64,000 bases of DNA from Anaerolineae bacterium (GTDB taxonomy: Bacteria > Chloroflexota > Anaerolineae > B4-G1 > DUEL01), in assembly GCA_041082215.1 (NCBI GenBank), contig JBDOIF010000152.1, positions 1,235 to 65,234 of the forward strand. The letters are read 5' to 3'. The notes under the pieces are model-generated. The model saw only the letters and a list, made by a program, of their open reading frames with translations, did no database searches and was not told the DNA's origin. Below are positions 7,405-63,279 of the stretch, piece after piece (within the stretch, counting starts at the first letter, position 1; every line of letters begins with the position of its first letter). A program made the translations under genes and the position numbers.

Positions 7405-7518
7405 CAAAAGATTATAGGCGGGGGGGAGCATCTCCGCAAGCTGCGGGTTGCGTCCTCCGCGTCCTCTGTGGTAAAATCGGCCCCGGTCCAGAACCCACTT
7501 TCTACAGGAGAAAGCCCG

Positions 7519-9461: not shown

Positions 9462-9471
9462 CGCTCACCCC

Positions 9472-43319: not shown

Positions 43320-43334
43320 ACGGAATACGGAGCA

Positions 43335-43364
43335 CGGAGTACGTATTGCGTGTTGCGTACTCCG
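43335..43364 (-). terminator. Repeat-derived hairpin (CGGAGTACG / CGTACTCCG) immediately 3' of fdhA
   Basis: cggagtacgTATTGCGTGTTGcgtactccg lies 2 nt after the fdhA stop; TACGGAA/TATTGCG repeat family. Confidence 0.45.
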
Positions 43365-45471: not shown

Positions 45472-45513
45472 AGGGTACTCCGTGTTACGTATTCCGTATT
45501 GCGTGTCCTGCAT

Positions 45514-47193
45514 TCACGCATCCAGACTCTTGAGAAAATCATTCGCTGCTTTTGCCAGTAATCGCGCTCTTTCCTTGAGAAACTGCTCGTAGTGCTCAAT
45601 GCTCCATTGCCCTTCTAACTGGGCCTTATTTCCAACAGCTTGCGCAAATGAATCGGGGATCAAGTGCTCAAGAAGTAACTGTTCGGAAATGTTGAATTGG
45701 GCCAGGTATTTTGCAGGTGGTTTTCCAGACAACCGGTTCACGTTTGTGCTTTCGTTCAGTACCGTGATGTTTGCCAGAGCATGAATCCGGTCATCAGGGA
45801 CACCGGCACTTCTCAGCACGCTGCGAGGATAAACGTGGTGCCACTGGGGTTCAAACCCACTCACGATTAAAGCACCTGTCCTATCATAGCCAATACGGGT
45901 TTGGTCTACCCAATCCCGCGCTTCTCGGTGAAACACCACCAGATAAAGCATCAGACGCAAGAAACGGCTACCAGCGCAGTCATACCGGCTCAGAAACTCT
46001 TCGGGGGTAATTTCGGAAGGCGCGTGTAAGCGCCCGTATAGGTTCTTTAAAGCCTGATCAAAGTCCTGCGCTTCAGTAATTGCGCGCACGTCCTCGTTCA
46101 AACTGGTAATCGCTGAACCGCTGTAACGGCCATCCCAGTTTGCCAGAAGAAACCAGCGAACAGCCTTGCTAAATCGGTAATTTTTCGTATCTTTCCAGCG
46201 GTGATGTAGCACGAAGAGAGGGATCAGACTGTTAACCGAGGGGAGCAACTTTACTGACATAATCCCGACCTCGGCCAGCCGTTTTCGAACTTCCACGATT
46301 ACTTCTCTGGTTTGTTGCCAAACAACGCTCAGGTTTTGAGGATTCCAAAAGTCTTTAGGGACTTCCTTCAGTCGGGCTCGCCCTTTACCAATGCCAGTCA
46401 TTGTGCGGACGAAGATGCCGGCATCCAGTCCCCATCCTATATCCTCCAACTCGCCGCAAAAGGGAAGATATTCCTCTCGCACCCAGCCTGGATTCCGTAC
46501 AGCGGCCAGCGCCAGAACAACATCGGCTTCCTTCACTCGCGTCCCTTCTTGATTCAACCGAGCGAAAATCTCGGCCACGTCTTCCACTTCATGGTTGATC
46601 CGAATTATGGGAATATCTCGCTCACGGATTTGCCACAAGCGCTGTAAGCGAGCATGGACTTTTGCAAACAGGTCCATCATCTGGGCAGGCTCAGGCTGAA
46701 TGGATGCCACAATCTCTTGAGCCAGTAGAGTTAGTGTCTCAACGTTCTCTGTGCTCAGTACACGGCGCAGGCTAATCCAGTGTGGATCGCGGCGACGGAT
46801 AGGGTTCGGCAGAGCAAACTCCAGATGGTCTTCGTCAGGGAGAAGATTTACCATCACATCATACCGCTCCAGGGCCCTGTTCCATTCCTGTGCGCTATCC
46901 CACCAGTATGGCTTTTGCCCTAAAAGCAGGCAAAGAGCAACCGTCCGTTGTTGCCCATCTACAATCCAAAGCGAAGCCTGCGTACCCTGGGCCGTTTTGG
47001 ACTCCTGGTACGAATACGAAGAGGAGTCCCAGAGCAAAAACGAACCGATCGGATAATCGCGATAGAGTGACTCCGCCAGTTTCTTGACCTGCTCCGGATC
47101 CCAAACGAATTCTCGCTGAAATTCAGGAATATCCACGCTCTTGTTGACCGCCTGTTTGACAATCTCCCGAACTTTCTGTTGCTCAAGTGCCAT
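45514..47193 (-). CDS. GmrSD-family type IV restriction endonuclease (DUF262 ParB-like + DUF1524 HNH-like)
   Basis: DUF262 N-terminus (IPEFQREFVW...DGQQR) and DUF1524 C-terminus (His/Asn motifs); markedly AT-richer than its surroundings. Confidence 0.75.
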   Translation of the reverse strand: MALEQQKVREIVKQAVNKSVDIPEFQREFVWDPEQVKKLAESLYRDYPIGSFLLWDSSSYSYQESKTAQGTQASLWIVDGQQRTVALCLLLGQKPYWWDSAQEWNRALERYDVMVNLLPDEDHLEFALPNPIRRRDPHWISLRRVLSTENVETLTLLAQEIVASIQPEPAQMMDLFAKVHARLQRLWQIRERDIPIIRINHEVEDVAEIFARLNQEGTRVKEADVVLALAAVRNPGWVREEYLPFCGELEDIGWGLDAGIFVRTMTGIGKGRARLKEVPKDFWNPQNLSVVWQQTREVIVEVRKRLAEVGIMSVKLLPSVNSLIPLFVLHHRWKDTKNYRFSKAVRWFLLANWDGRYSGSAITSLNEDVRAITEAQDFDQALKNLYGRLHAPSEITPEEFLSRYDCAGSRFLRLMLYLVVFHREARDWVDQTRIGYDRTGALIVSGFEPQWHHVYPRSVLRSAGVPDDRIHALANITVLNESTNVNRLSGKPPAKYLAQFNISEQLLLEHLIPDSFAQAVGNKAQLEGQWSIEHYEQFLKERARLLAKAANDFLKSLDA

Positions 47194-47233
47194 AGATGTT
47201 TCTCCTTCCGTAAGTTGGCATCCAGCAGAAGCC

Positions 47234-47428
47234 TCATTCCTGCTCCGTTCGCCACGCCAGAATCTGGTGCTGAAGTTCCACAGAGGTATAGCGAGAACCC
47301 AGGTCCCTTAAGGCACCGGCCCATTCAAACCCTGGATGAGCCCGGACCTTCTTTTCACGCTTTGCCAGCAGAAACTCAATAAAATCCCGCACTTCCTGCC
47401 GGATGTCCGCAGGAAGCATCCGATGCAT
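47234..47428 (-). CDS. DUF2281-like small protein (antitoxin-like)
   Basis: 64 aa with QEVRDFIEFLLAKREKK, the DUF2281 pattern. Confidence 0.45.
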   Translation of the reverse strand: MHRMLPADIRQEVRDFIEFLLAKREKKVRAHPGFEWAGALRDLGSRYTSVELQHQILAWRTEQE

Positions 47429-47447
47429 TATCTCACCTCCGCTATCT

Positions 47448-47520
47448 GCCCCTCCGCCAGCGTCAGCGACAGCGGCGGGGCGGCGAAGAGGTCGGCGCCG
47501 GGTGCGTAGCCCAACAAATC
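47448..47520. repeat. 73-bp direct repeat, copy A (about 88% identical to 48104..48176)
   Basis: cccctccgccagcgtcagcgacagcggcggggcggcg...cccaacaa; the first 38 nt are identical to copy B. Confidence 0.8.
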
Positions 47521-47523
47521 GGC

Positions 47524-47772
47524 CTATGCTGGAGAGAGAGCGACTTCCAGGGTTCTCATCCGGCGGTCAACCTCCTCCAGCATATCCTGAATCGCTCTGA
47601 TCGCCTCCTCGTCAAAAAGCACTTCTCCGCACTGGTCACATACCCAGGCCGGGACAGCATCCACAATGAGATGATACCCCTTGCGCGTGACCGTATAACT
47701 GACCGGTTTTCGGACCAGCGTCCCTTTACAATAGAAGCATTCCATGACAATCACCTCTTTCGGGTGCGCCAA
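47524..47772 (-). CDS. YgiT-type (MqsA-like) zinc-finger antitoxin
   Basis: MECFYCKG...VCDQCGEVLFDEEA is the YgiT-type zinc-finger motif. Confidence 0.7.
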   Translation of the reverse strand: MAHPKEVIVMECFYCKGTLVRKPVSYTVTRKGYHLIVDAVPAWVCDQCGEVLFDEEAIRAIQDMLEEVDRRMRTLEVALSPA

Positions 47773-48083
47773 TCAGGTTCCCAGTAGTCCTCGCTGGGCA
47801 GGTAAGCAGTGATGATTGCCAGATAATCCTTCTTCGGCGCACAGACTACGTGCACCGGACGACCCATATGCCCCCAACCCAGCATCAGGCAACTATGCCC
47901 CCGGGCATCCTCCGGATAGTCTTCTATCACTTCGCCGTAGAGAACCACCGCGCGAACTTCATCCGGAGAAATCATCCGGTCAGGAGCATTCATCTGATGT
48001 AAGGCGTGCGGCAGGTAAAGAATCCGCTTCGCAGCAGCTTCTCTAACCTTCTCCAGAATGCTCCTATGGCTCTCGGGTCTCAT
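47751..48083 (-). CDS. DUF4258-family toxin-like protein
   Basis: MRPESHRSILEKVREAAAKRILYLPHALHQMNAPDRMISPDEV...; its ATG (48083..48081) overlaps the TGA of the upstream fdhB-like gene by 1 nt. Confidence 0.6.
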   Translation of the reverse strand: MRPESHRSILEKVREAAAKRILYLPHALHQMNAPDRMISPDEVRAVVLYGEVIEDYPEDARGHSCLMLGWGHMGRPVHVVCAPKKDYLAIITAYLPSEDYWEPDWRTRKR

Positions 48084-48913
48084 CACTCCATACCTACCAT
48101 CGGCCCCTCCGCCAGCGTCAGCGACAGCGGCGGGGCGGCGGCGAGGTCCGCTCCTGGCTCGTACCCCAACAACTCCCCCACATCGCGCCGGATCAGGTCG
48201 TAGAGGACGGTCAGCGGGATGTGGGCCGGGCAGGTCAGTTCGCACTGGCGGCAGCCGACGCAGCGGGCCGCCATGTGCATGGCCCGGATAAGGTGGAAGG
48301 ACGGGAAGGGCGGGGCCAGCACCCCCGGCTCCACCCAGAGCGGGTCCTCCAGCGCGCAGGCCTCGCAGAAGCACTCCGGGCAGATGTTGCGGCAGCCGTA
48401 GCACTTGATGCATTTGGCGAACTGCTCCCGCCAGAAGGCCCAGCGCTCCGCCCAATCCATACTCTCGTACCGGGCGATGATGGGGTTGGGCGAGCCAGCG
48501 AGAGCTGGCGTCCCCAGCGCCACGGCTTGAGGCCAGCCCTCCGTCTTCGGGAAGGGGGCATCGCAGTGGCACGCCTCCGCCTCCTCCGCGGTGCAGGCCA
48601 CCCCCAGGATGTACAGGCGCTCGGGGTCTATCTGATTCCGCTTGGCCATCTCCACCAGCGCGCGCAGATCGCAGGCACGGGCGACAATGCCGAAGCGGGC
48701 CTGCGGGTAGCGCTTCTGGAGCAGGGAGACGACGGACGCCAGAGGGTAGCGAGGGGAGAGAACCAGTTCGGAGAGGTCATCTCCCTGGCGGAAGAGATAC
48801 GGCGCGGTGCCCACAGCCGTCCGCCGCAGGCCGACAACGCCGTCCAGTTCAGGAAGTTTCTCCGCCACGTGGGCGCGCAGGGTGTCCAAAAGGTCGTTAT
48901 CGGTCATCGGCAA
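48083..48913 (-). CDS. FrhB/FdhB-family iron-sulfur protein (putative formate dehydrogenase beta / electron-transfer subunit)
   Basis: An FrhB_FdhB-like core (FGIVARACDLRALVEMAKRNQIDPERLYILGVAC) and two C-terminal Cys clusters (CIKCYGCRNICPECFCEAC; CVGCRQCELTCP). Its last ~25 codons are encoded by repeat copy B. Confidence 0.5.
   Translation of the reverse strand: MPMTDNDLLDTLRAHVAEKLPELDGVVGLRRTAVGTAPYLFRQGDDLSELVLSPRYPLASVVSLLQKRYPQARFGIVARACDLRALVEMAKRNQIDPERLYILGVACTAEEAEACHCDAPFPKTEGWPQAVALGTPALAGSPNPIIARYESMDWAERWAFWREQFAKCIKCYGCRNICPECFCEACALEDPLWVEPGVLAPPFPSFHLIRAMHMAARCVGCRQCELTCPAHIPLTVLYDLIRRDVGELLGYEPGADLAAAPPLSLTLAEGPMVGME
48104..48176. repeat. 73-bp direct repeat, copy B, forming the 3' end of the fdhB-like gene
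   Basis: See copy A; together they bracket the YgiT/DUF4258 cassette. Confidence 0.8.
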
Positions 48914-48929
48914 ATACTCCCCATAGAGA

Positions 48930-49316
48930 TTATCGGAGTCCCAGCAATCGGCGGGCGAACCGCCGTACCTTTCCGGCTATTTGCACGGCTATCCTTGCTT
49001 CTTCCGGAAGGGGTTCTTCGCCGGGATAGCGTACTTCTACAGCATAAGCAGAGAGCCGATCCAGGTCATCCGGATGAATGGGTACGATGATCCCTGCCTG
49101 TTCACACAAAGTACCCAGCGCTGCCAGGTCGTGTGTCTTCGGGAAATCCTGCCCATGGAAAACCAGCAGGGCTTTCAGATATTTCTCAGCGCATTGTTGT
49201 GCATGAAAGCAGGCGCCATACAATAATGGCCTTTTGCGACGTATAGCAGATTGGGCCAGCCAGTAGTCCTCCTCGGCCCGGGTTGCCCACGAGGCAGGGT
49301 CAAGAATGGCGCTCAT
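48930..49316 (-). CDS. HEPN-domain protein
   Basis: HEPN helices with the ...EVRYPGEE motif; paired with the upstream nucleotidyltransferase. Confidence 0.65.
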   Translation of the reverse strand: MSAILDPASWATRAEEDYWLAQSAIRRKRPLLYGACFHAQQCAEKYLKALLVFHGQDFPKTHDLAALGTLCEQAGIIVPIHPDDLDRLSAYAVEVRYPGEEPLPEEARIAVQIAGKVRRFARRLLGLR

Positions 49317-50855: not shown

Positions 50856-51275
50856 CTACAGGCCCAGTTCCTGCTCGATCGGCCCCAGGGCGCGGATGGT
50901 CTCCACGAACTCGGCGGTCACCTGGGCAAACTTGGGGGCCTCCGCCGAGGAGACCCAGTCCAGTCGCAGCCGCTGGGGGTTGATGCCCACGTAGGAAAGC
51001 AGGTTACGCAGCAGGGGCATCCGTTTGGCGGTGCGGTGATTACCGTTGATGTAATGGCAGTCGCCGATGTGGCAGCCCAGCACCAGCACCCCGTCGGCGC
51101 CAGCGCGAAAGGCCCGCAGCACCATTTCCGGCGACACCCGCCCGGAGCACATCACCCGGATGGGCAGGACGTTGGGCGGCGACTTCATCCGCGCGATGCC
51201 CGCGTTATCGGCTCCGGCGTAGGAGCACCAGTTGCACAGAAAAGCGACAATGCGAGGTTGAAAAACTTCGCTCAT
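50856..51275 (-). CDS. mvhD: MvhD/FlxD-type hydrogenase iron-sulfur subunit (HdrA-associated)
   Basis: IVAFLCNWCSYAGAD...VMCSGRVSPEMVLRAF..GADGVLVLGCHIGDCHY. Confidence 0.85.
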   Translation of the reverse strand: MSEVFQPRIVAFLCNWCSYAGADNAGIARMKSPPNVLPIRVMCSGRVSPEMVLRAFRAGADGVLVLGCHIGDCHYINGNHRTAKRMPLLRNLLSYVGINPQRLRLDWVSSAEAPKFAQVTAEFVETIRALGPIEQELGL

Positions 51276-51301: not shown

Positions 51302-51802
51302 TTATGACATGGGCACTTCGCTCAGGAGTTCAGAAAGTTCGGCATCAGGGTCGGTGGTAGAGTAGAGATAGGGCGCGCTACTTTCACACAGTTGTACGAT
51401 ACCGGTGGTTTCCCGCTCCTCAGGAATAATAGAGAGGAGCAGGCGGACAATCTGGGTCAGCAGGTGGAGCCGATGAGCCAGGACAGCCTCTTTCAGGCCA
51501 TGGCGCCCCTCGTAGTACCAGGTTCGGGCCTCGCGGGCGGAGCCCAGGGCGTACTCGTAGAATCGGGCCCGCTCCTTCCCGGACCGGCGGCTGTACCCTT
51601 CGGCGATGTTGGCGGCGATAGAACCCAGGGCCCGATATAACTGGTCGGCCAGGCCGCGCATCCGGGCATCCTCAGCCAGCACCGAAACATCGTGCCAGCC
51701 CAGGTCGGCAGCGAAGAGGGCCAGCCGGTACACCCGCATCTGCCAGAGCGGATCCGCCGTAATCTCCGACGGCACGCTCTGCAACCACTCCTCGTGCGTC
51801 AT
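51302..51802 (-). CDS. Four-helix-bundle protein (TIGR02436 / 23S-rRNA-IVS-protein family)
   Basis: MTHEEWLQS...YRLALFAADL...LGSIAANIAEGYSRRSGKERARFYEYALGSAREARTWYYEG is characteristic of this family; the tracked N-terminal 24 aa are repeat-derived. Confidence 0.7.
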   Translation of the reverse strand: MTHEEWLQSVPSEITADPLWQMRVYRLALFAADLGWHDVSVLAEDARMRGLADQLYRALGSIAANIAEGYSRRSGKERARFYEYALGSAREARTWYYEGRHGLKEAVLAHRLHLLTQIVRLLLSIIPEERETTGIVQLCESSAPYLYSTTDPDAELSELLSEVPMS

Positions 51803-51825
51803 CGCCCACCTCCAACGGAACATGG

Positions 51826-51870
51826 AGTACGGAATACGTGCTGCGTACTGCGTATTCCGTATTCCGTGCT
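51826..51870. repeat. TACGGAA-family palindromic repeat hairpin between the 4HB gene and hdrA
   Basis: ggagtacggaatacgTGCTGCGTACTGcgtattccgtattccgtgctcc. Confidence 0.6.
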
Positions 51871-51877
51871 CCACGCG

Positions 51878-53833
51878 CTACACCCAGACGCCCGCTAAGA
51901 GGCCCTCTATCTGCGCCACAATCTGCTCGTCGGTAAAGTGAAGGCCGGTGATGGCATGGGATGGGCAGGTGGCGACGCAGGTGCCACATCCCTGACACAG
52001 CGCCGGGTTTACCTGCGCTTTCCCTTCCACGCGGGAGATCGCGGAGTAAGGGCAGGCCAGGATGCACTCACCGCACCCCACGCAGGCCTCCCGATCCACC
52101 ACGGCGACGGTGGGCGATATGGTGACCTCGCCCTGGTTGAACAACCGCACCACCTCCAGCGCCGCCGCCCCGGCATGGGCCACCGTGTCGGGGATGTCCC
52201 GTGGCCCCTGGGCACAGCCGGCCAGGAAGACCCCCGCCGTGGCCGTCTCCACCGGCCGCAGTTTGGGGTGCGCTTCGGCAAACCAGCCGTCGGGTGTGCG
52301 GCCCAGGCCGAACAACGGGGCGATGCGGTCCACATCGGGCTGCGGCTCGATGGCCGACTCCAGGATCACCAGGTCCACGTCCACAAACACCAGCCGTCCC
52401 AGGTTGGCATCCTCTCCCTTCACGCGGAGTTTGCCATCCGGCATGACTTCCACCTCGGCTCCCTTGCCCCGGACGAAGACGACTCCCTCCTCCTGCACCC
52501 GCTCGTAGAACTCCTCATAGGCCTTGCCGAAGGCCCGCATATCCATATAGAAATCGTACACCTCGGCTCCGGTCTTATCCCGCACCTGGTGGGCGTGCTT
52601 GAGGGCGTACATGCAACAGATGCGGGAGCAGTAAGGGTGAGCGTTCTCGTCGCGGCTGCCGACGCAATGGATGATGGCCACCCGCTGGGGCTTCTTCCCC
52701 TCGGCGGTGACGATCTCCCCCCCGGTGGGGCCGGTGGCGCTGGTGAGCCGCTCAAACTGTAGCCCGGTGATGATATTGGGCGAGAGGCCGTAGGAATACT
52801 GCGGAAGTTTCGCGGGGTCCCACATCGCAAACCCGGTCGCCACGATGATGGCGCCGACCTGAACTTCGAGCAGTTGATCCTCCTGGGTGTAATCAATCGC
52901 CCCGGTGGGGCAGAACTTCTCGCAGACCTTACACTTGCCCTGGGTAAAGAACCGGCAGTTCTCCCGGTCAATCACCGGGATGTTCGGGATGGCCTGGGCG
53001 AAGGGGCGGTAGATGGCCTTCCGCTTCCCCATCCCCGCCTCGAAGGCTGTATCCACCACTTTGGTGGGGCACTTCTCCTGGCAGAGGCCACAGCCGGTGC
53101 ACTTCTCCTCATCCACCGACCGCGCCCGTTTGCGGATGCGGGCGGTGAAATGGCCCACATAGCCGGAGACCTCTTCAACTTCACTGTAGGTCAGGAGGGT
53201 GATGTTGGGATGCCGACCGGCATCCATCATCTTGGGGCCCAGGATTCAGGTACTACAGTCCAGCGTGGGGAAAGTCTTATCCAACTGGGCCATATGGCCG
53301 CCGATGGATGGCTCCCGTTCCACCAGATAGACCGGGTAGCCCGCGTCAGCGATGGAGAGGGCGGCCTGGATGCCGGCGATGCCGCCGCCCACCACCAGCG
53401 CCGCTTTTGTCACCGGCTCCCGCCGGGGCTCCAGCGGGGCCTGGTATGCCACCCGGAAAACCGCCGACCGCACCAGCCGCTTCGCCTTCTCCGTGGCTGC
53501 CTCTTTATCATCGGTGATCCAGGAGACATGCTCGCGGATGTTGGCCATCTGGAAGAAATAGGGGTTGAGCCCGGCGGCCCCCAGGGCTCGCTGGAAGGTC
53601 GTCTCGTGCATCCGGGGGGTGCAGGACGCCACCACGACCCGGTTCAGGCCCAGGTTGCGGATGTCCTCCTGGATCATCAACTGGCCCGGCTCGGAGCACA
53701 TGTACTTGTACACCCGGGCGACGGCGACGCCAGGCAGTTTAGAAGCCATCTCTGCGACCGCCTCCACATCCACCGTGGCCGAGATATTGATGCCGCATTC
53801 ACAGATGTAGACGCCGATTCGGGGTTGCTCCAT
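51878..53833 (-). CDS. hdrA: Heterodisulfide reductase subunit A, selenocysteine-containing paralog 1; in-frame TGA at 53246..53248
   Basis: Tracked ORFs 53246..53971 and 51878..53230 are in one frame: ...GGGIAGIQAAL...KTFPTLDCST-[TGA]-ILGPKMMDAGRHPNITLLTYSEV..., which aligns with the HdrA consensus KTFPTLDCS-x-C-ILxPKMVEVxRHPNI with TGA at the Cys position. Also an FAD Rossmann motif, four or more ferredoxin Cys clusters, and an N-terminal YICECG. Start set at MEQPRIGVY. Confidence 0.85.
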
Positions 53834-53865: not shown

Positions 53866-55065
53866 TCAGGACTCTGCAGCCTGAATAGACTGCCAGAGCA
53901 GTTCCATTACATCCATTGCCCGCACGCGGATGCGGTTCTGCCGCGCTCCTTCCTGGAGGGTGCGCTTGCACTGCTGGCAGGCGGACGCCAGGATGCTGGC
54001 TCCTGTCGCCTGGATCTGGGCCAGCCGTTTTGCCGCGACGCCCATTGTGACAGCAGGGTCAGCCATCTCTACATCTCCGCCGCCGCCACAGCACAGCGCG
54101 CTCTGGCGAGACATAGACATCTCTCTCAATTCCAGCCCCGGAATGCGGGTCAGTATTTCCCGGGGTGGATCATATACGCCGCTCTTGCGCCCCAGGTCAC
54201 AGGGGTCGTGATAGGTCACCACGCCTTCCACTGGTCCCAATGGCGGGGCGGATTGTGCCATTCGTTCTGCCAGGAACTCGGTAGCATGCTGGAAATGGAG
54301 CCCTCGCACATCCGCCATCTCCGGATACAGGTGGGACCAGGCGTAGTAACAGGACGGACAGGTGAAGACCACCCTTTCCGCGCCCACCCTGCGCACCTGT
54401 TCCAGGTTGTGTCGGGCGATTTCCGCCATCTGATCCCGCAGTCCCGCGACATAGAGCGGGTATCCGCAACACCACTCGTCTCCGCCCAGGGTGGTAAACT
54501 CCACCTCTGCCCGCTCCAGCACTTTGACCGTTGCCTGAGGGATGGAGTACGCGCGCGGGTAGAACGACCCCACGCATCCCACAAAATAAACGACCTCCGC
54601 CGTTCGCCGCAGGGGTTGCACGCCCACCGGTGGGTCGGGCATATTCTGGCTCCATACCAGACGGTTGGCGTTCTCGTCGCCGGAGATGTTGTACTGGCTG
54701 GTGACGGTCTGGCTGACTCGCAGCAGCAGTTGGGGGACTTCCAGGCCCTGGCGCTGGACGTACTCCCGAAGGGCCACCATCGTATCCGTGATCTGGATGC
54801 CCCGGGGGCAACGGACCTGGCAGGACTTACAAACCGTGCAGAGCCAGAAGGTGCGGCTGGTCAATACCTCCGCCGTTAGTCCCAGCTGCACCATTCGCCA
54901 CAACTGACGCGGGGTATAATCCATCGCGTAGGAGGTGGGACAGGAAGCGGAGCATGTGCCGCACTGGATGCAGGAGAGAATCTTTTCCCAGCGGCCGGGG
55001 GTCACCTGCTGAGCAAACGTCCGGTCCGCCTGGGCGAGGTCCAGGATTTCAGGGGGGTTGGTCAT
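53866..55065 (-). CDS. HdrC-HdrB fusion protein (HdrD/GlpC-like; 2x[4Fe-4S] + two CCG domains)
   Basis: N-terminal CIQCGTCSASCP...CTVCKSCQVRCP; C-terminal CCG motifs (DEWCCGYP..., LCCGGGG). Confidence 0.8.
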   Translation of the reverse strand: MTNPPEILDLAQADRTFAQQVTPGRWEKILSCIQCGTCSASCPTSYAMDYTPRQLWRMVQLGLTAEVLTSRTFWLCTVCKSCQVRCPRGIQITDTMVALREYVQRQGLEVPQLLLRVSQTVTSQYNISGDENANRLVWSQNMPDPPVGVQPLRRTAEVVYFVGCVGSFYPRAYSIPQATVKVLERAEVEFTTLGGDEWCCGYPLYVAGLRDQMAEIARHNLEQVRRVGAERVVFTCPSCYYAWSHLYPEMADVRGLHFQHATEFLAERMAQSAPPLGPVEGVVTYHDPCDLGRKSGVYDPPREILTRIPGLELREMSMSRQSALCCGGGGDVEMADPAVTMGVAAKRLAQIQATGASILASACQQCKRTLQEGARQNRIRVRAMDVMELLWQSIQAAES

Positions 55066-55256: not shown

Positions 55257-56522
55257 TTATCCGCCCGCCTGGGGCAAAAAGCGGCGAACGGTGTGCAGAA
55301 GATGGTCCGGGTCTATCGGTTTGCTGATCCAGGCGTCTATCGGGATGTGCAGGGTATCGGGCAGAAGGCCAGCGTACTGGCTGCTATCAATGCTGGAGAC
55401 CATCACCACCGGGATAGGCCGCAGGGCCGGGTCCGCCGCGATTTCCTGGGCGACACCCGCGCCTTCCAGCGGCGTCGCCATCATCACGTCCAGCATGACC
55501 AGGTCCGGCTTCTCCTCCCGCATCATCTTCAACGCCTGCTGCCCGTTGCTGGCGGTCGCGACCTGATACCCCGCTTTGCTGAGAATCCGCCGGGAGAGGT
55601 CCACGAAGTCCGGGTCATCGTCCACCACCAGAATCCTCAGCGCCACTCCTGGCTTGACCTCCACCTTCTTCTTCGGTCGCAGATAGATGAACCAGTAGGC
55701 CAGGCCGACAAAGCCTGCGCCGCCGATGATGTTCCCGATGGTCACCGGCAGCAGATTTCTCAGGAAGAAGCCCCCCCAGGTAAGCGCGGCGAAGTCGGCG
55801 GGCGTCTTGCCGATGGCTTCCCAGAAAGCCGCTGGTGCCCATGACTTGATGAAAAGGCCGATCGGGATGAGGTACATATTGGCGATACTGTGCTCAAACC
55901 CGGCGGCGACAAAGGCAGTAATGGGGAAGATGATGGAGAGGATTTTATCCGTTGTGGACCGGGCCGACGCGCAGAGCCACACCGCCAGGCAGACCAGCGC
56001 ATTACACATAATGCCCAGCGCGGTGGCCTGAAGGAATCCCAGGCTGCATTTCGCGTTGGCGATAGAGAGTGCGTTCAATCCCAGCGCGCCCGAGGCAAAG
56101 GTGTACTGGCTGGTAAGAAACATCACCAGCGCGGTGAAGATAGAACCGATGAAGTTGCCCGCGTAGACAATGGCCCAGTTGCGCAGGAGTTGGACAGTGG
56201 TGACCCGGCGGCTGGCGTAGGCCATCACAATGAGATTGTTGCCGGTGAACAGTTCTGCCCCAGCGACCACGACCGCGATCAGGCCGAGGCAGAAGACCAG
56301 GCCGCCTGCCAGCCGGATCAGTCCATACGGCACACCAGCCGCGCTCAAGCCGGTCGTCACGGTGGTCAGGAAGATACCACCCGTTCCGATAAACGCGCCG
56401 GCCAGAACGGCAAGAGCGAACATCGTCCAGAAATCCAGGTTCGCTTTGGTGACCCCCACCTCTTCCATACGGCTGGCCATTTTCGCCGGTGGGAAGGCAT
56501 CAATTTGCAATTCACTGCTCAT
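55257..56522 (-). CDS. Formate/nitrite transporter (FocA/FNT) fused to a C-terminal response-regulator receiver domain
   Basis: An FNT core (FLTTVTTGLSAAG...LFTGNN...AAGFEHSIANMY) followed by RILVVDDDPDFVDLSRRILSKAGYQVATASNGQQALKMMREEKPDLVMLDVMM..., i.e. a CheY-like REC with the phospho-acceptor Asp context. Confidence 0.75.
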   Translation of the reverse strand: MSSELQIDAFPPAKMASRMEEVGVTKANLDFWTMFALAVLAGAFIGTGGIFLTTVTTGLSAAGVPYGLIRLAGGLVFCLGLIAVVVAGAELFTGNNLIVMAYASRRVTTVQLLRNWAIVYAGNFIGSIFTALVMFLTSQYTFASGALGLNALSIANAKCSLGFLQATALGIMCNALVCLAVWLCASARSTTDKILSIIFPITAFVAAGFEHSIANMYLIPIGLFIKSWAPAAFWEAIGKTPADFAALTWGGFFLRNLLPVTIGNIIGGAGFVGLAYWFIYLRPKKKVEVKPGVALRILVVDDDPDFVDLSRRILSKAGYQVATASNGQQALKMMREEKPDLVMLDVMMATPLEGAGVAQEIAADPALRPIPVVMVSSIDSSQYAGLLPDTLHIPIDAWISKPIDPDHLLHTVRRFLPQAGG

Positions 56523-56779: not shown

Positions 56780-57160
56780 TCATCCTGTGGCCTTTCCCAG
56801 GACCGCCCGCACCCGCCCGGGTGGGGCCAGCTCCACCGGTTCCAATCCCCACAGCGCGCGCCCTTCATTGACCTCCGGGCCCACACACAGGGCATAGCCA
56901 CAGGCCAGGACATTCTCAAAGGCCTGTCGGTACCCCTCCGGCGCCGACCTTCGGCGGCGTGCTTCCATCATCAACTCGTGGATGTCCACCCCGGCGGGGC
57001 AGGCCTCCTGGCAGCGCCAGCAGGAGGTGCAGAGCCACACATCGTAAACAGGATCACCGGCCAGGAAGGAGACGATGGCGTGCCCTCCCACCGTCTCCAC
57101 CGGGCAGACGGTGACACAGAGGCCACAGCCCAAACACTCGTCCGGTCGGTTCACTGCCAT
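56780..57160 (-). CDS. hdrC: Heterodisulfide reductase subunit C-like ferredoxin
   Basis: CLGCGLCVTVCP...CTSCWRCQEACP. Confidence 0.75.
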   Translation of the reverse strand: MAVNRPDECLGCGLCVTVCPVETVGGHAIVSFLAGDPVYDVWLCTSCWRCQEACPAGVDIHELMMEARRRRSAPEGYRQAFENVLACGYALCVGPEVNEGRALWGLEPVELAPPGRVRAVLGKATG

Positions 57161-58005
57161 TCCTCCTTCCGCAGCCCCAGCCGCTCCGCCGGAAGCCCCA
57201 TTGCCAGCCCGATCAACTGTGGCAGAAGGAGCGCTCGCCTGCGCAGGGCTTCGTCATTGCCCGCAATCTTGCGCTGAAAGCGACGGAGGAGCAAATGGCA
57301 GTTCCCGCAAGCATAGAGCAGCAGGTCGGCCTCTTGCACCGCCTCGAGTCTCCGCCGCCCGGCCCTCAGGGCCAGTTCTGGATCGGCCAGATAGACCGTC
57401 GCCCCGCAGCACTCGTCCTCCCCGCCATACTCCAGGACCTCCGCGCCGGTCAGCTCCACCAGGCGGCGAAGGCTCTGTGGTTCCACCGGGTCGTCGAAGC
57501 CCATCACCTCGCCGGGGCGAAAGGCCTGGCAGGGGTTGATGAACGCCACCCGGAAGGGTAGCGGGCGGACGATCCGCGCCCGCACTCCCTCCTCCCGCTC
57601 GGCCAGCAACCGGATCAGGTGGATCGGCTCCACCTCCCCCGCGACCGAAAGCCCCATTGGCTCCAGCCGCCGGTTCGCCTCGGTCCGCACCCTGGGATCG
57701 GCCCGGAGCGCGCGAGCGGCGCGGGCCAGGGTGTTGGTGCAACCCCCGCACACTGTGACCACCTGCCGGTGGCCCATCCGCTCCACCAGCGCCAGGTTGT
57801 AGGCTGCCAGGTAAACCCAATCAGCGGTGAAGGATTCGACGACGGGCGAGCCACAACAGGCGGCCTGCTGGACCAGCTCCAGTTCCATTCCCAGCGCCTC
57901 CAGCACCGCCCGGGTGGCCGCCTCGTATTCGGGCATGCGCTGGAGGACCAGGCAGCCGGGGTAGAAGGCAAATTGCAGGTTACAGGTTGCAGACTGCAGA
58001 GCCAA
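57151..58005 (-). CDS. hdrB: Heterodisulfide reductase subunit B-like (two CCG domains)
   Basis: FYPGC...CCGSP and INPCQ...CCGAT motifs; the N-terminal ~10 aa overlap a CAGGTTR repeat (57975..58002), so the start is uncertain. Confidence 0.75.
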   Translation of the reverse strand: MALQSATCNLQFAFYPGCLVLQRMPEYEAATRAVLEALGMELELVQQAACCGSPVVESFTADWVYLAAYNLALVERMGHRQVVTVCGGCTNTLARAARALRADPRVRTEANRRLEPMGLSVAGEVEPIHLIRLLAEREEGVRARIVRPLPFRVAFINPCQAFRPGEVMGFDDPVEPQSLRRLVELTGAEVLEYGGEDECCGATVYLADPELALRAGRRRLEAVQEADLLLYACGNCHLLLRRFQRKIAGNDEALRRRALLLPQLIGLAMGLPAERLGLRKEEWQ

Positions 58006-58087: not shown

Positions 58088-59128
58088 TTACAGCGCCACC
58101 ACCCGGGCGAAGTCCGCCGGGGTCACGCCGGGGGTCTCGATATGGTACTCGGCATAGAAGCGGGAGATGATCGGCTCCACTTCCTCCAGCCTTGCCCCTA
58201 TCAGTGCGCTTTCCAGATCTGTCAGCCGCTCCGCTGGATAGAAGAAGAAGTCGCCAGAGAGGGAGACACTCTCGATCACTCCTTCTCGCACCTCGGCCGT
58301 GGCGCGGATGAGGCCGCCGGGGGCTTTGTAGGCCCGCTGAACCACCTGGACGCCGGAGCGGATGGTGACGGCACGGCCTTCCTGGGGCCGGCCGTGGCGG
58401 AACAGCCACTCGTCGGTGAGCATCCTCTGCGCCAGCCGGTCCGCCTCCGCCCGCCATTCGGCATCCACCTCCGTCACCACCTCCATCGGCCCCAGCACAT
58501 CGGCGAACCTCTCCGCCAGCAGGTCCCACAGTTCCTCGCGCGGCGGCGCTGTGCCCAGCTCCCTCCGGATAGTGGAGAGATTATCCTGCAGGGTCTTGTA
58601 GACTTTATCGCGGAACTTCTCGTCGGGCACCCGCAGCACCCGTACCATCGTCTCGTAGTCAAAATCCACAATCAGGTTGCCGACGAAGACGATGTAGTCG
58701 CCGATCTCGGCCACGCCGTTGCCGGAAATCTTGCGGCCGTTGGCGATGATGTCGTTGACCGGCTTGTACTCGGCGGGGATGCCCAGAGCCCGGTAGGCGG
58801 CGATGGGGGCCTGGAGAAACTTCTGGTAGAACGCTGCCTTGTCCTTCGGGACCAGCGGGTTATCCTTGTGGATGATTAACTGGTAGAAGAGTTGTTCGCC
58901 ATCCAGATAGACGGCGCCCCCTCCCACCTCTCGCCGGAAGACCGGAATGCCGCGCTCCCGGCAGTAGTCCAGGTCCACCTCCTGCGCGGCGTCCTGGAAG
59001 TAGCCGATGCAGACGTAGGGGGATGCAGGGGAAAGCAGATTCAGCCCCTCCCGCCCGATGCGAGGAAGGGCATGGTAGAGAATTTGGGAGTCCTGCCAGG
59101 GTACGGTCTCGAGGCGGTAGAGTTTCAT
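58088..59128 (-). CDS. lplA: Lipoate-protein ligase A-like (LplA/LipB/BirA catalytic fold + LplA C-terminal domain)
   Basis: MKLYRLETVPWQDSQILYHAL...RREVGGGAVYLDGEQL...K(I)SGNG lysine motif; AGGAGG RBS before the ATG at 59128. The tracked N-terminal 11 aa are rejected. Confidence 0.7.
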   Translation of the reverse strand: MKLYRLETVPWQDSQILYHALPRIGREGLNLLSPASPYVCIGYFQDAAQEVDLDYCRERGIPVFRREVGGGAVYLDGEQLFYQLIIHKDNPLVPKDKAAFYQKFLQAPIAAYRALGIPAEYKPVNDIIANGRKISGNGVAEIGDYIVFVGNLIVDFDYETMVRVLRVPDEKFRDKVYKTLQDNLSTIRRELGTAPPREELWDLLAERFADVLGPMEVVTEVDAEWRAEADRLAQRMLTDEWLFRHGRPQEGRAVTIRSGVQVVQRAYKAPGGLIRATAEVREGVIESVSLSGDFFFYPAERLTDLESALIGARLEEVEPIISRFYAEYHIETPGVTPADFARVVAL

Positions 59129-59149
59129 GAATTCCTCCTGTTTTTGGGT

Positions 59150-59238
59150 GTCGGGCGTCAAACGTCAGGCGTCAAACGTCAAACGTCAAACGTCAGGCGT
59201 CAAACGTCAAACGTCAAACGTCAAACGTCAGGCATCAA
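59150..59238. repeat. Tandem array of about 13 GTCAAAC / GTCAGGC heptamers
   Basis: gtcgggcgtcaaacgtcaggcgtcaaacgtcaaacgtcaaacgtcaggc...gtcaggcatcaacc, between mvhD2 and lplA. Confidence 0.85.
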
Positions 59239-59656
59239 CCGCTGCTCGCATCTCCAGCGGGCCCAGCCGGCGCACCTTTTCGGTGAACTCCCGCACCGTC
59301 TGGGCAAACAGCTCCCCCTCCGAGGAAGAGACCCACTTGACCAGGAATCGCTCCGGCTCGATGCCGGTGAACGCCAGCAGGGCCTTGAGGACCGGCATTC
59401 GGCGGGCGGTGCGGTGGTTGCCGGTGGCGTAGTGGCAGTCGCCGATATGGCAACCCAGCACCATTACCCCATCGGCTCCCTCTTTGAAAGCGCGGATCAC
59501 CAGCTCCGGCGCGACCCGTCCCGAGCAGGGGACGCGGATGATCTTGAGGTTGGGAGGGTACTTCAGCCGGGTCGCCCCGGCCAGGTCCGCTCCGGCATAA
59601 CTGCACCAGTTGCAGAGGAAACCGATGATCTTCGGCTCGTAAGCCTGCTCGCTCAT
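59228..59656 (-). CDS. mvhD: MvhD/FlxD-type iron-sulfur subunit, paralog 2
   Basis: IIGFLCNWCSYAGADLAG...VPCSGRVAPELVIRAF..GADGVMVLGCHIGDCHY. Confidence 0.85.
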   Translation of the reverse strand: MSEQAYEPKIIGFLCNWCSYAGADLAGATRLKYPPNLKIIRVPCSGRVAPELVIRAFKEGADGVMVLGCHIGDCHYATGNHRTARRMPVLKALLAFTGIEPERFLVKWVSSSEGELFAQTVREFTEKVRRLGPLEMRAAVDA

Positions 59657-59665
59657 CCCAGCCTC

Positions 59666-59715
59666 CTACGGAATACGCAGTACGTACTACGTATTGCGTG
59701 TCGCGTATTGCGCCC
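59666..59715. repeat. TACGGAA/TATTGCG-family repeat overlapping the hdrA2 3' end
   Basis: ctacggaatacgcagtacgtactacgtattgcgtgtcgcgtattgcgc; it encodes the last residues (AMRAQYATRNT) of the tracked HdrA2 ORF. Confidence 0.6.
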
Positions 59716-61678
59716 GCATCGCGAAGATCGCCCCCATCATCTCCGAAACCAGTTGCCGGTCGGTGAAGTGACGGAGGGTGATCGCTTTGGAAGGGCAGGC
59801 TCCGGCGCAGGTGCCGCACCCCTTGCAGAGCGCATCGATCACATGGGCGACCCTGCGCTCTTTCAGGTATTCGATGGCCGCGTACGGACAGGACTGGATA
59901 CACTGCCCGCAGCCGGTGCACATCAGCTCGTCCACGAGGGCGGTGGCCGACTCTACCTTCACCTCTCCCTGGCCGATGAGGGAAAGGACCCGCGCCGCCG
60001 CCGCCGAGCCCTGGGCCACCGAGTCCGGGATGTCCTTCGGCCCCTGAGCGCACCCGGCGACGAGCACCCCGTCGGTCATCGTCGCCACCGGGTCCAGCTT
60101 GGGGTGCTTTTCCCTGAACCACCCGTCGGCGTCGGTGCTGATGCCGAAGAGACGGGCCACTTCCCGGCTGTCGTGGCGCGGTTCCAGGCCGATCGCCAGC
60201 ACCACCATATCCACCGGCAGCCGTCGCTGCCGCCCCACCAGGGAATCGTCGAACTGGACGACCAGTTTTCCCTCCTCCTCCGGCCCGCGTGCAGCGTCCG
60301 TCACCTGGGCCACCTTCCCGCGGATGAAGTGGATCCCCTCATCCAGCATCCGGTGGTAGAACTCCTCATATAGCTTGCCGGGGGCGCGAATGTCAATATA
60401 GAAGTTATATACCTCGGCGTGGGTCTTATGGCGGATCAGGTGGGCCAGCTTCAGGGAGTACATACAGCAGACCCGGGAGCAGTATTCGTGGTACTTCTTG
60501 TCCCGGCTGCCCACGCAGTGGATGATGGCCACCTGTCGGGGGACCGTTTCCCCATCCCGCAGGACCACCTTGCCGCCGGTAGGACCAGCCCCGCTGAGCA
60601 TCCGCTCCATCTCCAGGCTGGTGAAGACGTTGGGGAAACGGCCGTAGCCGTACTGGGGAATCCGTCGGGCGTCGAAGGGATCGAAGCCGGTGGCGAGGAT
60701 GATGTTGCCCACCTGGACCTCCAGGATGGTGTCCTGCTGGTTGTAGTCTATGGCGCCGGTGGGGCAGACCTTTTCACAGAGGCGGCAACGGCCTTTGGTA
60801 AACCAGAGGCAGTTGTCGCGGTCAATGACGGGGACGGGGGGCACTGCCTGGGCGAAGGGGCGGTAGACCGCCTTCCGATACCCCAGCCCCGCCTCGTAGG
60901 CGGCGTCAACGACTTTCGTGGGGCACTTTTCCTCACACGTACCGCATCCGGTGCACTTCTCTGCATCCACCGACCGGGCCCGAACGCGGATGCGGACCAC
61001 AAAGTTGCCCACATAGCCGGAGACGCTTTCCACCTCGCTGTAGGTCAGGAGATTGATGTTGGGATGCCGACCGGCATCCATCATTTTGGGCCCGAGAATT
61101 CAGGCACTACAGTCGAGCGTGGGGAAGGTCTCATCCAGTTGAGCCATCCGGCCGCCGATGGAAGGCTCCCGTTCCACCAGATAGACCGGGTAGCCGGCGT
61201 TGGCCAGCTCCAGGGCCGCCTGGATGCCGGTGATCCCCCCGCCGACGACCAGCGTGGCCGGGTTGATGCGCACCCGGTTTTCCTCCAGGGGCTGGTGGTG
61301 GCGCACCCTTAGGACCGCCGCCTCGACCAGGGCTTTTGCCTTCCCGGTGGCGATCTCGGGGTCATCGTGGACCCAGGAACACTGTTCGCGGATGTTGGCC
61401 ATCTCGAAGAAGTAGGGGTTGAGACCTGCCTCTGCCACAGCTCGCTGGAAGGTCGGCTCGTGCATCCGCGGGGTGCAGGAAGCCACCACCACCCGGTCCA
61501 GTCCCAGCTCCTGAATGTCCTTTTTGATCAGCTCCTGGCCCAGGCTGGAACACATGAAGCGGTAGTCGCGGGCCACGGCCACCCCCGGCAGGTCGGCGGC
61601 CCAGCGGGCCACCTCCGCCACGTCTACCACACCGGCGATGTTGGAACCACAGTGGCAGATGTAGACGCCGATCTTCAT
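59687..61678 (-). CDS. hdrA: Heterodisulfide reductase subunit A, selenocysteine-containing paralog 2; in-frame TGA at 61100..61102
   Basis: Tracked ORFs 61100..61708 and 59687..61084 share a frame: ...ETFPTLDCSA-[TGA]-ILGPKMMDAGRHPNINLLTYSEV...; the same architecture as paralog 1 (about 75% identity by eye). Start set at MKIGVY. Confidence 0.85.
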
Positions 61679-61753: not shown

Positions 61754-62740
61754 TCAGCGACGGAGCGAAGCGGAGTCGCGCTGTACGGCCGCCAGCGGTT
61801 CGGGCATCGGCAGGCCGGTCCGCTCCCGGCGCGGTTTGCGTTCCGCTGTCTCCTCTTCGGGTGGCGGGTTGCGGAACTTCTCCAGCACCCGTTCCGCCGA
61901 CACGATCTCCTGCCCAAAGCCCAGTTTCTCCGGCTCCAATCCGAAGGCCAGGCCCATCATCTGGGTGAAGTAGAGGACCGGGATGTGGAAATCGGTGCCG
62001 AAGTGGGAGTTGACCTGTCCCTGGTAGGCGTCCAGGTTGAGCTGGCACATCGGGCAGGCAGTGACGAGGGCGTCCACCTCCAGCTTGGCCGCGTTGTAGA
62101 GCAGGTAGTGGATCATCCTGTAGGCGGTCTCGGCGTCCAACTGGGTCATATGGCCGCCGCAGCAGTTGGCCCGCAGGGTGTAATCCACCACCTCCGCCCC
62201 CAGCGTCTCCAGCAGCCGCTCCATCCGCGAGGGGTATTCGAAGTTGTCGCGCCCCTCTGGGCGGACAGTGACACAGCCGTAGTAGGCGGCCAGCCGCAGC
62301 CCCCGCAGCGGCGCCTTCACGTGGGCTCCGATCTCCTCCAGGCTGAAATCCTCCACAACCACCTCCAGCGCGTGGCGGGAGTGGACCCGGCCCGGATCAT
62401 AGTGGAGCTTCCCCGCCGCCAGCGCCTCGTTCACCGCCGCTGCCAGCTTGGGATGGGCAAGCATATTCTTGTCGGTCTTCAGCATATTGTAGTAACAGGC
62501 GGAGCAGGGGGCCACCACCTCCTTCAGGTCGGGGGGCACCAGCGCCAGGTTGCGGGCCACCAGCGCGTAAGCGGGGAGCAGGTCGAGGGAAAAGTACTCC
62601 GTTGCCCCGCAGCAGTTCCAATCGGGGATCTCCACCAGCTCGATCCCCAGAACCTCTGCCACGGCGCGGAAAGACTCGTCGTAGGCCGCAGCGTTCCGTT
62701 CCAGCGAACAACCGGGGTAGTAGGCGTACCGTCTCACCAT
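61754..62740 (-). CDS. hdrB: Heterodisulfide reductase subunit B-like, paralog 3
   Basis: MVRRYAYYPGC...NCCGATE and GCV...NCCGGH CCG motifs; start set at the ATG 62740 (GGGAGGTG RBS), and the long tracked upstream extension is rejected. Confidence 0.8.
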   Translation of the reverse strand: MVRRYAYYPGCSLERNAAAYDESFRAVAEVLGIELVEIPDWNCCGATEYFSLDLLPAYALVARNLALVPPDLKEVVAPCSACYYNMLKTDKNMLAHPKLAAAVNEALAAGKLHYDPGRVHSRHALEVVVEDFSLEEIGAHVKAPLRGLRLAAYYGCVTVRPEGRDNFEYPSRMERLLETLGAEVVDYTLRANCCGGHMTQLDAETAYRMIHYLLYNAAKLEVDALVTACPMCQLNLDAYQGQVNSHFGTDFHIPVLYFTQMMGLAFGLEPEKLGFGQEIVSAERVLEKFRNPPPEEETAERKPRRERTGLPMPEPLAAVQRDSASLRR

Positions 62741-63279
62741 GCACCTCCCAGTTCTTTGGCCCTGCGGAGGATAGCGCGCAGTTGGCGGATGCCCTGGATC
62801 CGTTTGGGCGTGAAGGACATCCGGCCCCGGGTCACCATGCCCAGCATCAGGGGGGACATGCGGATGCTCTGGAGGGGATGGTGGCGAAGGTAGTGCCCGG
62901 TCGCCAGACCCAGTTCGAAACTGCGCCCGTAAGTCTCCACCTGCCCCACGAAGGTCTCGGAGAAGCCGGTGATGGAAGCAGTGTAGTAGCCAGCCTGGAT
63001 GGCCAGCCGCTTGAGCTGGTACATAATGTCTGTGATCGGGATCTCCTGGGGGCAGCGGATGGTGCAGTAGTAGCAGGAGACGCAGAACCAGAAGGTGTTG
63101 CTTTTGAGGACCTCCTCCCGCATTCCGGCCAGGATCATTGCGAAGATCTCCCGCGGCGTGTAGTCCATAGCCGGGCCGGAAGGGCACGACCCGCCACAGG
63201 AACCGCACTGAATACAGGCCCTCAGCCGCTCCCCGCCGGGGATCGCCATCACCTCTTCTAGGAAGCTCTTTTCTGCCAT
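62734..63279 (-). CDS. hdrC: Heterodisulfide reductase subunit C-like, paralog 3
   Basis: CIQCGSCGGSCP...CVSCYYCTIRCP; start set at MAEKSF (could be MARRRD at 63324). Confidence 0.75.
   Translation of the reverse strand: MAEKSFLEEVMAIPGGERLRACIQCGSCGGSCPSGPAMDYTPREIFAMILAGMREEVLKSNTFWFCVSCYYCTIRCPQEIPITDIMYQLKRLAIQAGYYTASITGFSETFVGQVETYGRSFELGLATGHYLRHHPLQSIRMSPLMLGMVTRGRMSFTPKRIQGIRQLRAILRRAKELGGAW

Follow-up and report, generated by a model that had tools for sequence, protein, structure and literature searches.

Two hdrA genes are interrupted by an in-frame TGA codon in a stretch of 64,000 nucleotides (nt) from an Anaerolineae bacterium of the phylum Chloroflexota (GenBank assembly GCA_041082215.1, contig JBDOIF010000152.1, positions 1,235 to 65,234; hereafter the window, to which all coordinates refer). 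In both genes the TGA is followed, at the same distance, by an identical RNA hairpin. We conclude with high confidence that this TGA is a selenocysteine (Sec) codon, that the hairpin is a SECIS (a sequence element for Sec insertion), and that both genes encode a Sec-containing HdrA.

Paralog 2 (59687..61678, minus strand) encodes an HdrA-family flavoprotein and iron-sulfur (Fe-S) subunit of 663 residues, from an ATG at 61678 to a TAG at 59687. Its reading frame is broken only once, by the TGA at 61100..61102 (minus strand; codon 193, hence Sec as residue 193), with HdrA homology on both sides and a G+C content at third codon positions that is high on either side (0.84-0.85). The codon lies in the motif D-C-S-A-U (CxxU, with U for Sec), in the context ...ETFPTLDCSA-TGA(61102-61100)-ILGPKMMDAGRHPNINLLTY... 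(sequence and translation). A spacer of 20 nt (61080..61099, minus strand; AUUCUCGGGCCCAAAAUGAU, codons I-L-G-P-K-M-M) separates it from the upper hairpin (61062..61079, minus strand), an 18-mer (GGATGCCGGTCGGCATCC) with a 5' arm GGAUGCC (61079-61073), a GGUC loop (61072-61069), and a 3' arm GGCAUCC (61068-61062). GGATGCC-GGTC-GGCATCC forms a perfect stem of 7 base pairs (bp) capped by GGUC, in frame also encodes (M)-D-A-G-R-H-P, and in paralog 2 folds at -12.3 kcal/mol in a 48-nt context. An in-frame ATG-ATG lies 18 nt past the TGA.

Paralog 1 (51878..53833, minus strand) repeats this layout. With the start taken at MEQPRIG (about 53833), it encodes 651 residues up to a TAG stop, with Sec as residue 196 in the motif D-C-S-T-U (CxxU; TGA at 53246..53248, minus strand; context ...DCST-TGA-ILGPKMMDAGRHPNITLLTY...). 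Its hairpin (53208..53225, minus strand) has the same geometry as that of paralog 2. The initial annotation had proposed that a second hdrA carries an in-frame TGA like that of the first, followed by the same 18-nt element. Both observations hold, with TGA codons at 61102-61100 and 53248-53246 and an identical 18-mer 20 nt past each of them. These two sites are the only places in the window where the exact 18-mer occurs, and even with 3 mismatches allowed about 0.23 matches are expected by chance. The two sites that match with 3 mismatches (5977 and 41157) are in unrelated frames (one ABC-ATPase-like, one other) and were set aside as not hdrA.

HdrA is a classic family of prokaryotic selenoproteins (PMC1794560, PMC13188914), and CxxU is the motif tabulated for it (PMC13188914). 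The assignment of the two genes to this family draws on FAD (flavin adenine dinucleotide)/NAD-binding and 4Fe-4S domains detected by Pfam in both proteins, and on a best NCBIfam model of HdrA2 (NF040770; 868 bits for paralog 2 over residues 2-648, spanning the TGA, and 832 bits for paralog 1). Both scores are below the model's cutoff of 1100, a shortfall probably due to its fused MvhD domain, which is a separate gene here; the sequences thus identify both genes as HdrA at the family level, not at the equivalog level. The HdrA chain 5odc_A in PDB matches paralog 2 across the TGA (residues 2-649, E = 9e-219). At the position of the TGA, all 120 of the best full-length homologues (67-73% identity, Chloroflexota) have Cys. 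In fragment alignments to PDB chains, the TGA aligns with a Cys of 5odc_A and with X197 of 9sfi_A, the HdrA of Methanococcus maripaludis. This residue is Sec197, which forms a selenosulfide with a Cys near the FAD in the Hdr-Vhu-Fwd complex as solved (PMC13518236).

The TGA could instead be a true stop, marking either a pseudogene or a gene that is naturally split in two, with 192 residues in the N-terminal protein and 465 in a C-terminal one whose translation begins anew at the ATG-ATG. TGA is indeed the commonest ordinary stop in the window, where it closes 57 of the 118 long stop-to-stop frames (for the two hdrA genes the stop is TAG), and the public protein collection holds exactly such fragments, of 192 and 465 residues (61103-61678 and 59690-61084) and of 450 residues (51881-53230). 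This split at the TGA is taken to be an annotation artefact of gene callers. Both paralogs have the same TGA codon, which recurs in at least 119 other genomes, always at the redox Cys in the middle of the FAD domain, and a solved homologue has Sec at the aligned position. A true stop is further at odds with the HdrA homology and high third-position G+C content on both sides of the codon, and with the hairpin beside it that fits the SECIS model described below. The spacer itself bears the mark of translation. The five codons after the TGA read ATC CTG GGC CCC AAG in paralog 1 and ATT CTC GGG CCC AAA in paralog 2, and between the TGA and the ATG-ATG there are 4 differences, all in third positions and all synonymous, after which the next 31 nt are identical. 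Since a restriction of all 4 differences to third positions would have P of about (1/3)^4 = 0.012 in untranslated DNA, the spacer appears to be translated. The codon alignment therefore bears out the differing third positions around the TGA reported in the initial annotation (four synonymous differences in five codons). We regard a true stop as very improbable.

Translation of the UGA as an ordinary amino acid without selenium, whether through a changed code (Trp or Gly), near-cognate decoding, or Cys insertion, would also leave the frame open. In some systems, Cys is inserted at Sec codons under selenium/sulfur imbalance, and Sec machinery was not seen in the window (no tRNA in 64 kb; 20 open reading frames (ORFs) tested). 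However, a codon that ends 57 of 118 long frames is not reassigned, and the homologues carry Cys here rather than Trp or Gly. A scan of the window for in-frame TGA codons, in which at least 80 open codons were required on each side, gave only three convincing cases, the two hdrA genes and an fdhA gene. All three belong to classic selenoprotein families and each TGA is then followed by a GGUC-type hairpin. Decoding of the UGA as an ordinary amino acid is therefore hardly credible. The mvhD genes and the genes with CCG domains in the window have no in-frame TGA. A CxxU-like 'QDCGQ*' at 57256 lies in an alternative frame overlapping a Pfam-supported CCG gene (57154-58005) and was treated as spurious.

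The third case is an fdhA/fdhF-like gene for a molybdopterin formate dehydrogenase (43366-45513, minus strand), with an in-frame TGA at 45043-45045 in a classic Sec motif. Its hairpin (45012-45032, minus strand) has an 8-bp stem and a GGUCU loop at nt 22-26, spaced as in fdhF of Escherichia coli. In the latter, the upper stem-loop begins 11 nt from the UGA, and G23 and U24 are in the apical loop, with G23 named as a contact of the Sec-specific elongation factor SelB (PMC8659212). Because a Sec-type fdhA with a canonical SECIS is present in the same window, the organism very probably decodes Sec, fdhA being indirect support for this. The hairpins of hdrA and fdhA share a CC-GGUC-(U)GG apex, which evidently would be seen in both genes by one SelB. 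Heptanucleotide tandem repeats occur around this gene (43944-43993, 43318-43343, and 45475-45504), with ATTGCGT/ACGCAAT present about 7 times inside the fdhA coding region and similar 7-mers at both ends of the gene; this is odd for an essential oxidoreductase gene.

The geometry of the hdrA hairpins agrees with the published model of bacterial SECIS (bSECIS) elements, which allows loops of 3-9 nt on stems of 4-16 bp, wants a G among the first two bases of the loop, places the loop 16-37 nt from the UGA, and sets the minimum free energy (MFE) at no more than -7.5 kcal/mol (by Zhang and Gladyshev, in the summary of PMC13188914); the loop G is usually followed by G or U (PMC13188914). Both hairpins have a 4-nt GGUC loop, 7 bp, and 27 nt between UGA and loop, and the bare hairpin has an energy of -11.5 kcal/mol. 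In both paralogs the structure lies within the coding region, immediately downstream of the in-frame UGA. It has also been kept by selection, as seen from its covariation and from its presence with UGA and absence with Cys codons.

This association with TGA was determined by comparing two sets of genes. For the TGA-type set, one genome per species was scanned for the pattern F-P-T-x-D-C-x-x-TGA-I-L-x-P-[K/R]-M, which stops before the hairpin; at least 119 loci were found, in Desulfobacterota, Chloroflexota, Firmicutes, Planctomycetota, Acidobacteriota, KSB1, Cloacimonadota, and others, plus five archaea. The Cys-type set consists of 116 unique genes found in metagenomes with the same pattern carrying TGY. 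The bSECIS model was passed by 98 of 114 bacterial TGA genes (86%) and by 4 of 116 TGY genes (3%), by none of the 5 archaeal genes with TGA, and by 1.8% of shuffles. Uninterrupted stems of at least 6 bp within nt 13-60 are present in 108 of 114 bacterial TGA genes vs 19 of 116 TGY genes. The mean MFE of nt 13-54 is -11.9 kcal/mol in the former and -6.5 kcal/mol in the latter (Mann-Whitney p = 7e-25), and -2.5 kcal/mol in the five archaeal TGA genes. Among the 98 bacterial hairpins that pass, the loop is GGUC in 72 and the distance from UGA to loop is 27 nt in 75. One Cys-type hdrA with TGT (L235, on metagenome contig Ga0187770_10075508) keeps GGATGCT-GGAA-GGCATCC at the SECIS position (peptide ADAGRHP). 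This hairpin is probably a fossil SECIS from a recent conversion of Sec to Cys; remnant SECIS structures have been described earlier (PMC1794560).

Whether the 18-mer is conserved as RNA or simply as peptide is less easily decided within the window. Identity between the paralogs is 63% for protein and 69% for DNA, and where a residue is identical its codon agrees in 62% of cases, so that 8 consecutive degenerate codons would be identical by chance with P of about 0.62^8 = 0.02. A longer identical run of 32 nt covers the FAD-binding motif, and stretches of 48-66 nt do not fold clearly better than shuffled sequences (z -0.4 to -2.7), in a setting of DNA with about 64% G+C. Because of these three results, the evidence in the window alone points only moderately to a signal at the RNA level. 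The choice of codons is its more telling part. GGT makes up 7% of Gly codons in both hdrA genes, GAT and CAT are minority codons overall, and under each gene's own usage the codon set found for D-A-G-R-H has P of about 0.002 for paralog 1 and about 0.0006 for paralog 2. As read from the sequence, the wobble bases in the stem each pair with a fixed second-position base on the opposite arm.

The corresponding alternative is that the 18-mer is identical merely through conservation of MMDAGRHP or gene conversion between the paralogs, in which case the hairpin has no function at the RNA level. The identical codons, the FAD-motif run, and the weak folding scores are all compatible with this. Synonymous sites in other genomes are not. 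The test set comprised 76 TGA-type hdrA genes encoding D-[A/V]-G-R-H, found without the hairpin in the search pattern, and in these genes of many phyla the hairpin codons are near-invariant (GAT in 75 of 76, GCC in 48 of 48, GGT in 76 of 76, and CAT in 76 of 76), while flanking codons for Ile, Leu, Gly, Pro, Lys, Asn, and Glu drift among 2-5 synonyms each. In Cys-type genes that share these residues, every synonym is in use (GGC in 10, GGG in 9, GGA in 9, and GGT in 5 for Gly; CAC in 52 and CAT in 42 for His).

Compensatory changes point the same way. At least five stem sequences occupy the same place: GGAUGCC/GGCAUCC, GGAUGUC/GACAUCC, UGACGC/GCGUCA, GGUGUCC/GGACGCC, and GGAUGAC/GUCAUCC. When 116 bacterial sequences are aligned without gaps, the named stem (columns 24-30 with 35-41) is paired in 79.7% of cells vs 72.0% in shuffles (0 of 500 as high), and its covariation score of 0.172 exceeds both the 0.076 of shuffles (0 of 500 as high) and the score of every slid register. 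At pair 29-36, 57 sequences have C-G, 24 have U-A, and 10 have U-G. At the level of codons, Ala GCC occurs with Arg CGG in 48 genes and with CGA in none, and Val GUC occurs with CGA in 21 and with CGG, a wobble intermediate, in 6 (Fisher p = 1.4e-13). The compensated GUC/CGA state is seen in four peptide contexts. The closest Cys-type homologues mostly read ILTP[KR]MF[ED][AV]GNH[PK] here (most often with MF[ED]AGNHP), and whatever the choice of codons, the stem could be encoded by a single one of the 120 and not by the other 119. Since the synonymous sites are frozen, the pairing is compensated, and the peptide is specific to Sec forms, conservation of amino acids does not explain the 18-mer. 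The sequences indicate instead that the RNA structure constrains codons and even residues, and that MDAGRHP is specific to Sec forms as a consequence of the hairpin. Together with the passing of the bSECIS model by 86% of TGA genes vs 3% of TGY genes, this leaves very little credence for the peptide or gene conversion explanation. The initial annotation had itself named a full explanation of the 18-mer by conservation of MMDAGRHP as the case that would weaken its SECIS inference. With that case rejected on the 76 genes, its view of a recoding signal rather than a pseudogene lesion is supported by the alignment of TGA with Cys, the bSECIS model, the association with TGA, and the covariation.

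A possible lower helix (61055..61085, minus strand) would pair nt 18-21 with nt 45-48 around the upper hairpin, counting the U of UGA as 1. At this place RNAfold predicts pairing of AUG with CAU, in columns that are fixed by Met and Ile codons and hence uninformative. Of the 116 sequences, 50 lack pair 18-48 and 32 lack pair 21-45. The helix is weak, and the sequence counts would neither support nor exclude it.

Several points weigh against the reading of these genes as Sec-encoding with a SECIS. No tRNA-Sec was found in the 64 kb (nor any tRNA in the window), and there was no selA, selB, or selD among the 20 window ORFs tested with NCBIfam, the window being 64 kb of the genome. The evidence is at the level of DNA, not of protein, and suggests rather than demonstrates Sec insertion at the TGA of both hdrA genes. 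The Cys-type set comes from taxonomically unassigned metagenome sequences and is not matched for taxonomy, and the comparative counts are of sequences that share ancestry or horizontal transfer, not of events, so their p-values are overstated. The SECIS prediction called for by the initial annotation is positive for both hairpins under the published model and came with no Rfam family match: no SECIS family was matched in the whole window at the gathering score, nor in 60980-61160 at E <= 10. The Rfam miss means that the library does not describe this class of hairpin, not that the hairpin is no SECIS. RNAalifold predicted no consensus structure on the 116 mixed bacterial sequences, because the mixed hairpin classes differ in register.

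Taking as observed the codon, the hairpin, its association with TGA across genomes, the covariation, the synonymous constraint, and the homology of the site, we propose the following mechanism for paralog 2. The in-frame UGA at codon 193 would be decoded as Sec rather than as a stop, with the hairpin 20 nt downstream, a G+C-rich 7-bp stem whose GGUC loop begins 27 nt after the UGA, acting as the bacterial SECIS. The apical GGUC loop would bind SelB together with guanosine triphosphate and Sec-tRNA(Sec), and the hairpin would be required for read-through. Held at the mRNA entrance of the arriving ribosome, the SelB complex could deliver Sec in such a way that it outcompetes release factor 2, after which the ribosome would melt the hairpin and translate it as M-D-A-G-R-H-P. 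The Sec would be the second member of a C-x-x-C redox pair beside the FAD, the residue matching Sec197 of Methanococcus, and would have a catalytic role there. Within an electron-bifurcating module of the heterodisulfide-reductase type, HdrA would be the subunit that carries FAD and Fe-S, alongside the products of HdrB/C-like and MvhD-like genes.

Such genes flank both paralogs. Directly downstream of paralog 2 is an mvhD-like (FlpD) gene with an uninterrupted frame (59231..59656, minus strand; Pfam PF02662, E = 7.6e-54), and directly upstream is an HdrB-like gene with a CCG domain (61754..63208, minus strand; Pfam PF02754; NCBIfam TIGR03288 for HdrB, E = 8e-53, below cutoff). Paralog 1 has upstream an HdrC/B-fusion-like gene (53866..55065, minus strand; 4Fe-4S dicluster and CCG domains in Pfam and NCBIfam) and downstream a second mvhD-like gene (50856..51275, minus strand; Pfam PF02662, E = 8.8e-54), whose match to the fused HdrA2 model covers positions 647-777 of that model. 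Paralog 1 is separated from its mvhD by an ORF (51302-51874, minus strand) assigned to PF05635, the family of the 23S rRNA intervening-sequence protein. In the public protein collection, the cluster around one of the window's mvhD genes (mvhD-1) includes fragments of 67 residues, which may reflect the same splitting in Sec-type MvhD genes.

Between the two hdr modules are genes for a formate/nitrite transporter that carries a fused response-regulator receiver domain (55257-56522, minus strand) and for a lipoate-protein ligase (58088-59161, minus strand); the latter, near hdr, is reminiscent of the lipoate-binding partners that sulfur-oxidising Hdr-like systems have. Between the hdr cluster and fdhA, ORFs with a GmrSD-N domain (45517-47193) and a HEPN domain (48933-49316; both within 45517-49316, minus strand) are in or beside a dip in G+C content (44001-48000, GC 0.58), and this stretch may be an inserted defence or toxin island. 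Elsewhere the window contains a bacterial large signal-recognition-particle RNA (14123-14386, minus strand; Rfam RF01854, 172 bits), a methyltetrahydrofolate:corrinoid/iron-sulfur protein methyltransferase-like gene (7468-8385, plus strand), and an EtfAB pair (8478-10275, minus strand). Together with Hdr, MvhD, and Fdh, the methyltransferase and EtfAB hint at a Wood-Ljungdahl-type or electron-bifurcating metabolism, which has been proposed for marine Chloroflexi (PMC5736913). The closest DNA to the window, 83-85% identical, is from metagenome-assembled genomes of Anaerolineae and Thermoflexus.

The family (Sec-HdrA) and the mechanism (an in-frame bSECIS) are already known, and our understanding of Sec recoding is unchanged by the hdrA findings; what is new is the instance, two Sec paralogs in a Thermoflexus/Anaerolineae-like member of the Chloroflexota. 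Both HdrA proteins are mis-called in the public collection, and likewise the same genes in well over a hundred other genomes. For physiology, the presence of two HdrA modules and a formate dehydrogenase that all depend on selenium would bear on energy metabolism and trace-element needs. The genes are also a clean example of an RNA signal in a coding region that constrains both synonymous sites and protein, with a change from Ala to Val compensated by a synonymous change in Arg.

One hairpin class, with 27-nt spacing and a GGUC loop, is common to many bacterial phyla and almost unchanged among the sequences compared. GGAUGYC-GGUC-GRCAUCC is nearly identical in at least seven lineages (Chloroflexota, Desulfobacterota, Planctomycetota, Acidobacteriota, KSB1, Krumholzibacteriota, and Glassbacteria). 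We tentatively suggest, as a reading that is plausible but falls short of probable, that this sequence at 27 nt is a distinct HdrA-specific SECIS cassette that travels horizontally with hdrA and forces the peptide M-D-[A/V]-G-R-H-P. If this is true, the two Sec-HdrA modules and the Sec-FdhA point to selenium-dependent, formate-linked electron bifurcation in a little-studied lineage.

The nearest counterpart of the hairpin is the bSECIS of E. coli fdhF, which is likewise a stem-loop within the coding sequence just past the Sec UGA, with a small apical loop in which G is followed by G or U. We take the letters of that loop to be the same GGUC as in hdrA. Two differences from fdhF weigh against reading the hdrA hairpin as a SECIS: the upper stem of hdrA begins 20 nt from the UGA rather than 11, placing the loop 9 nt (three codons) further away, and it is a perfect 7 bp without the bulged U17 of fdhF (PMC8659212). 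The fdhA gene of the window keeps the E. coli-like spacing, unlike the hdrA hairpins.

On the protein side, the closest parallel is the Sec-HdrA of Methanococcus maripaludis and Methanocaldococcus (Sec197, PDB 9sfi, PMC13518236), which belongs to the same family and aligns residue for residue, with the same Sec in a CxxU motif by the FAD. The methanogen protein works in an Hdr-Vhu-Fwd assembly, whereas the partners encoded in this Chloroflexota genome are HdrB/C-like with separate MvhD genes. The five archaeal TGA-type genes in the scan have no hairpin past the UGA and encode LEANRHP, LESNRHP, or VEVAKHP there, which fits the location of the archaeal SECIS in the 3' untranslated region (PMC13188914). 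The Cys-type HdrA of Chloroflexota (the 120 closest, 67-73% identical) has the same length, domain order, fold, and place of the C-x-x-C, but TGY instead of TGA, and the peptide ILTP[KR]MF[ED][AV]GNH[PK] in most cases instead of the ILGPKMMDAGRHP found here.

Among bacteria, HdrA has been known as a selenoprotein since at least 2006 in Deltaproteobacteria and Clostridia, as it has in archaea, often with several Sec copies per genome (PMC1794560). The genes of Syntrophobacter fumaroxidans (7 copies), Syntrophus, Moorella, and Carboxydothermus likewise have an in-frame UGA and several Sec paralogs, and cluster with mvhD/frhD and GlpC/HdrD-like Fe-S genes, similar to the arrangement in the window (PMC1794560). 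The present genes differ from these in their Chloroflexota lineage and in having no adjacent frhG or frhA hydrogenase genes. Many of the Desulfobacterota TGA-type genes in the scan carry the same 18-mer as the two paralogs described here, or its compensated GUC/CGA variant.

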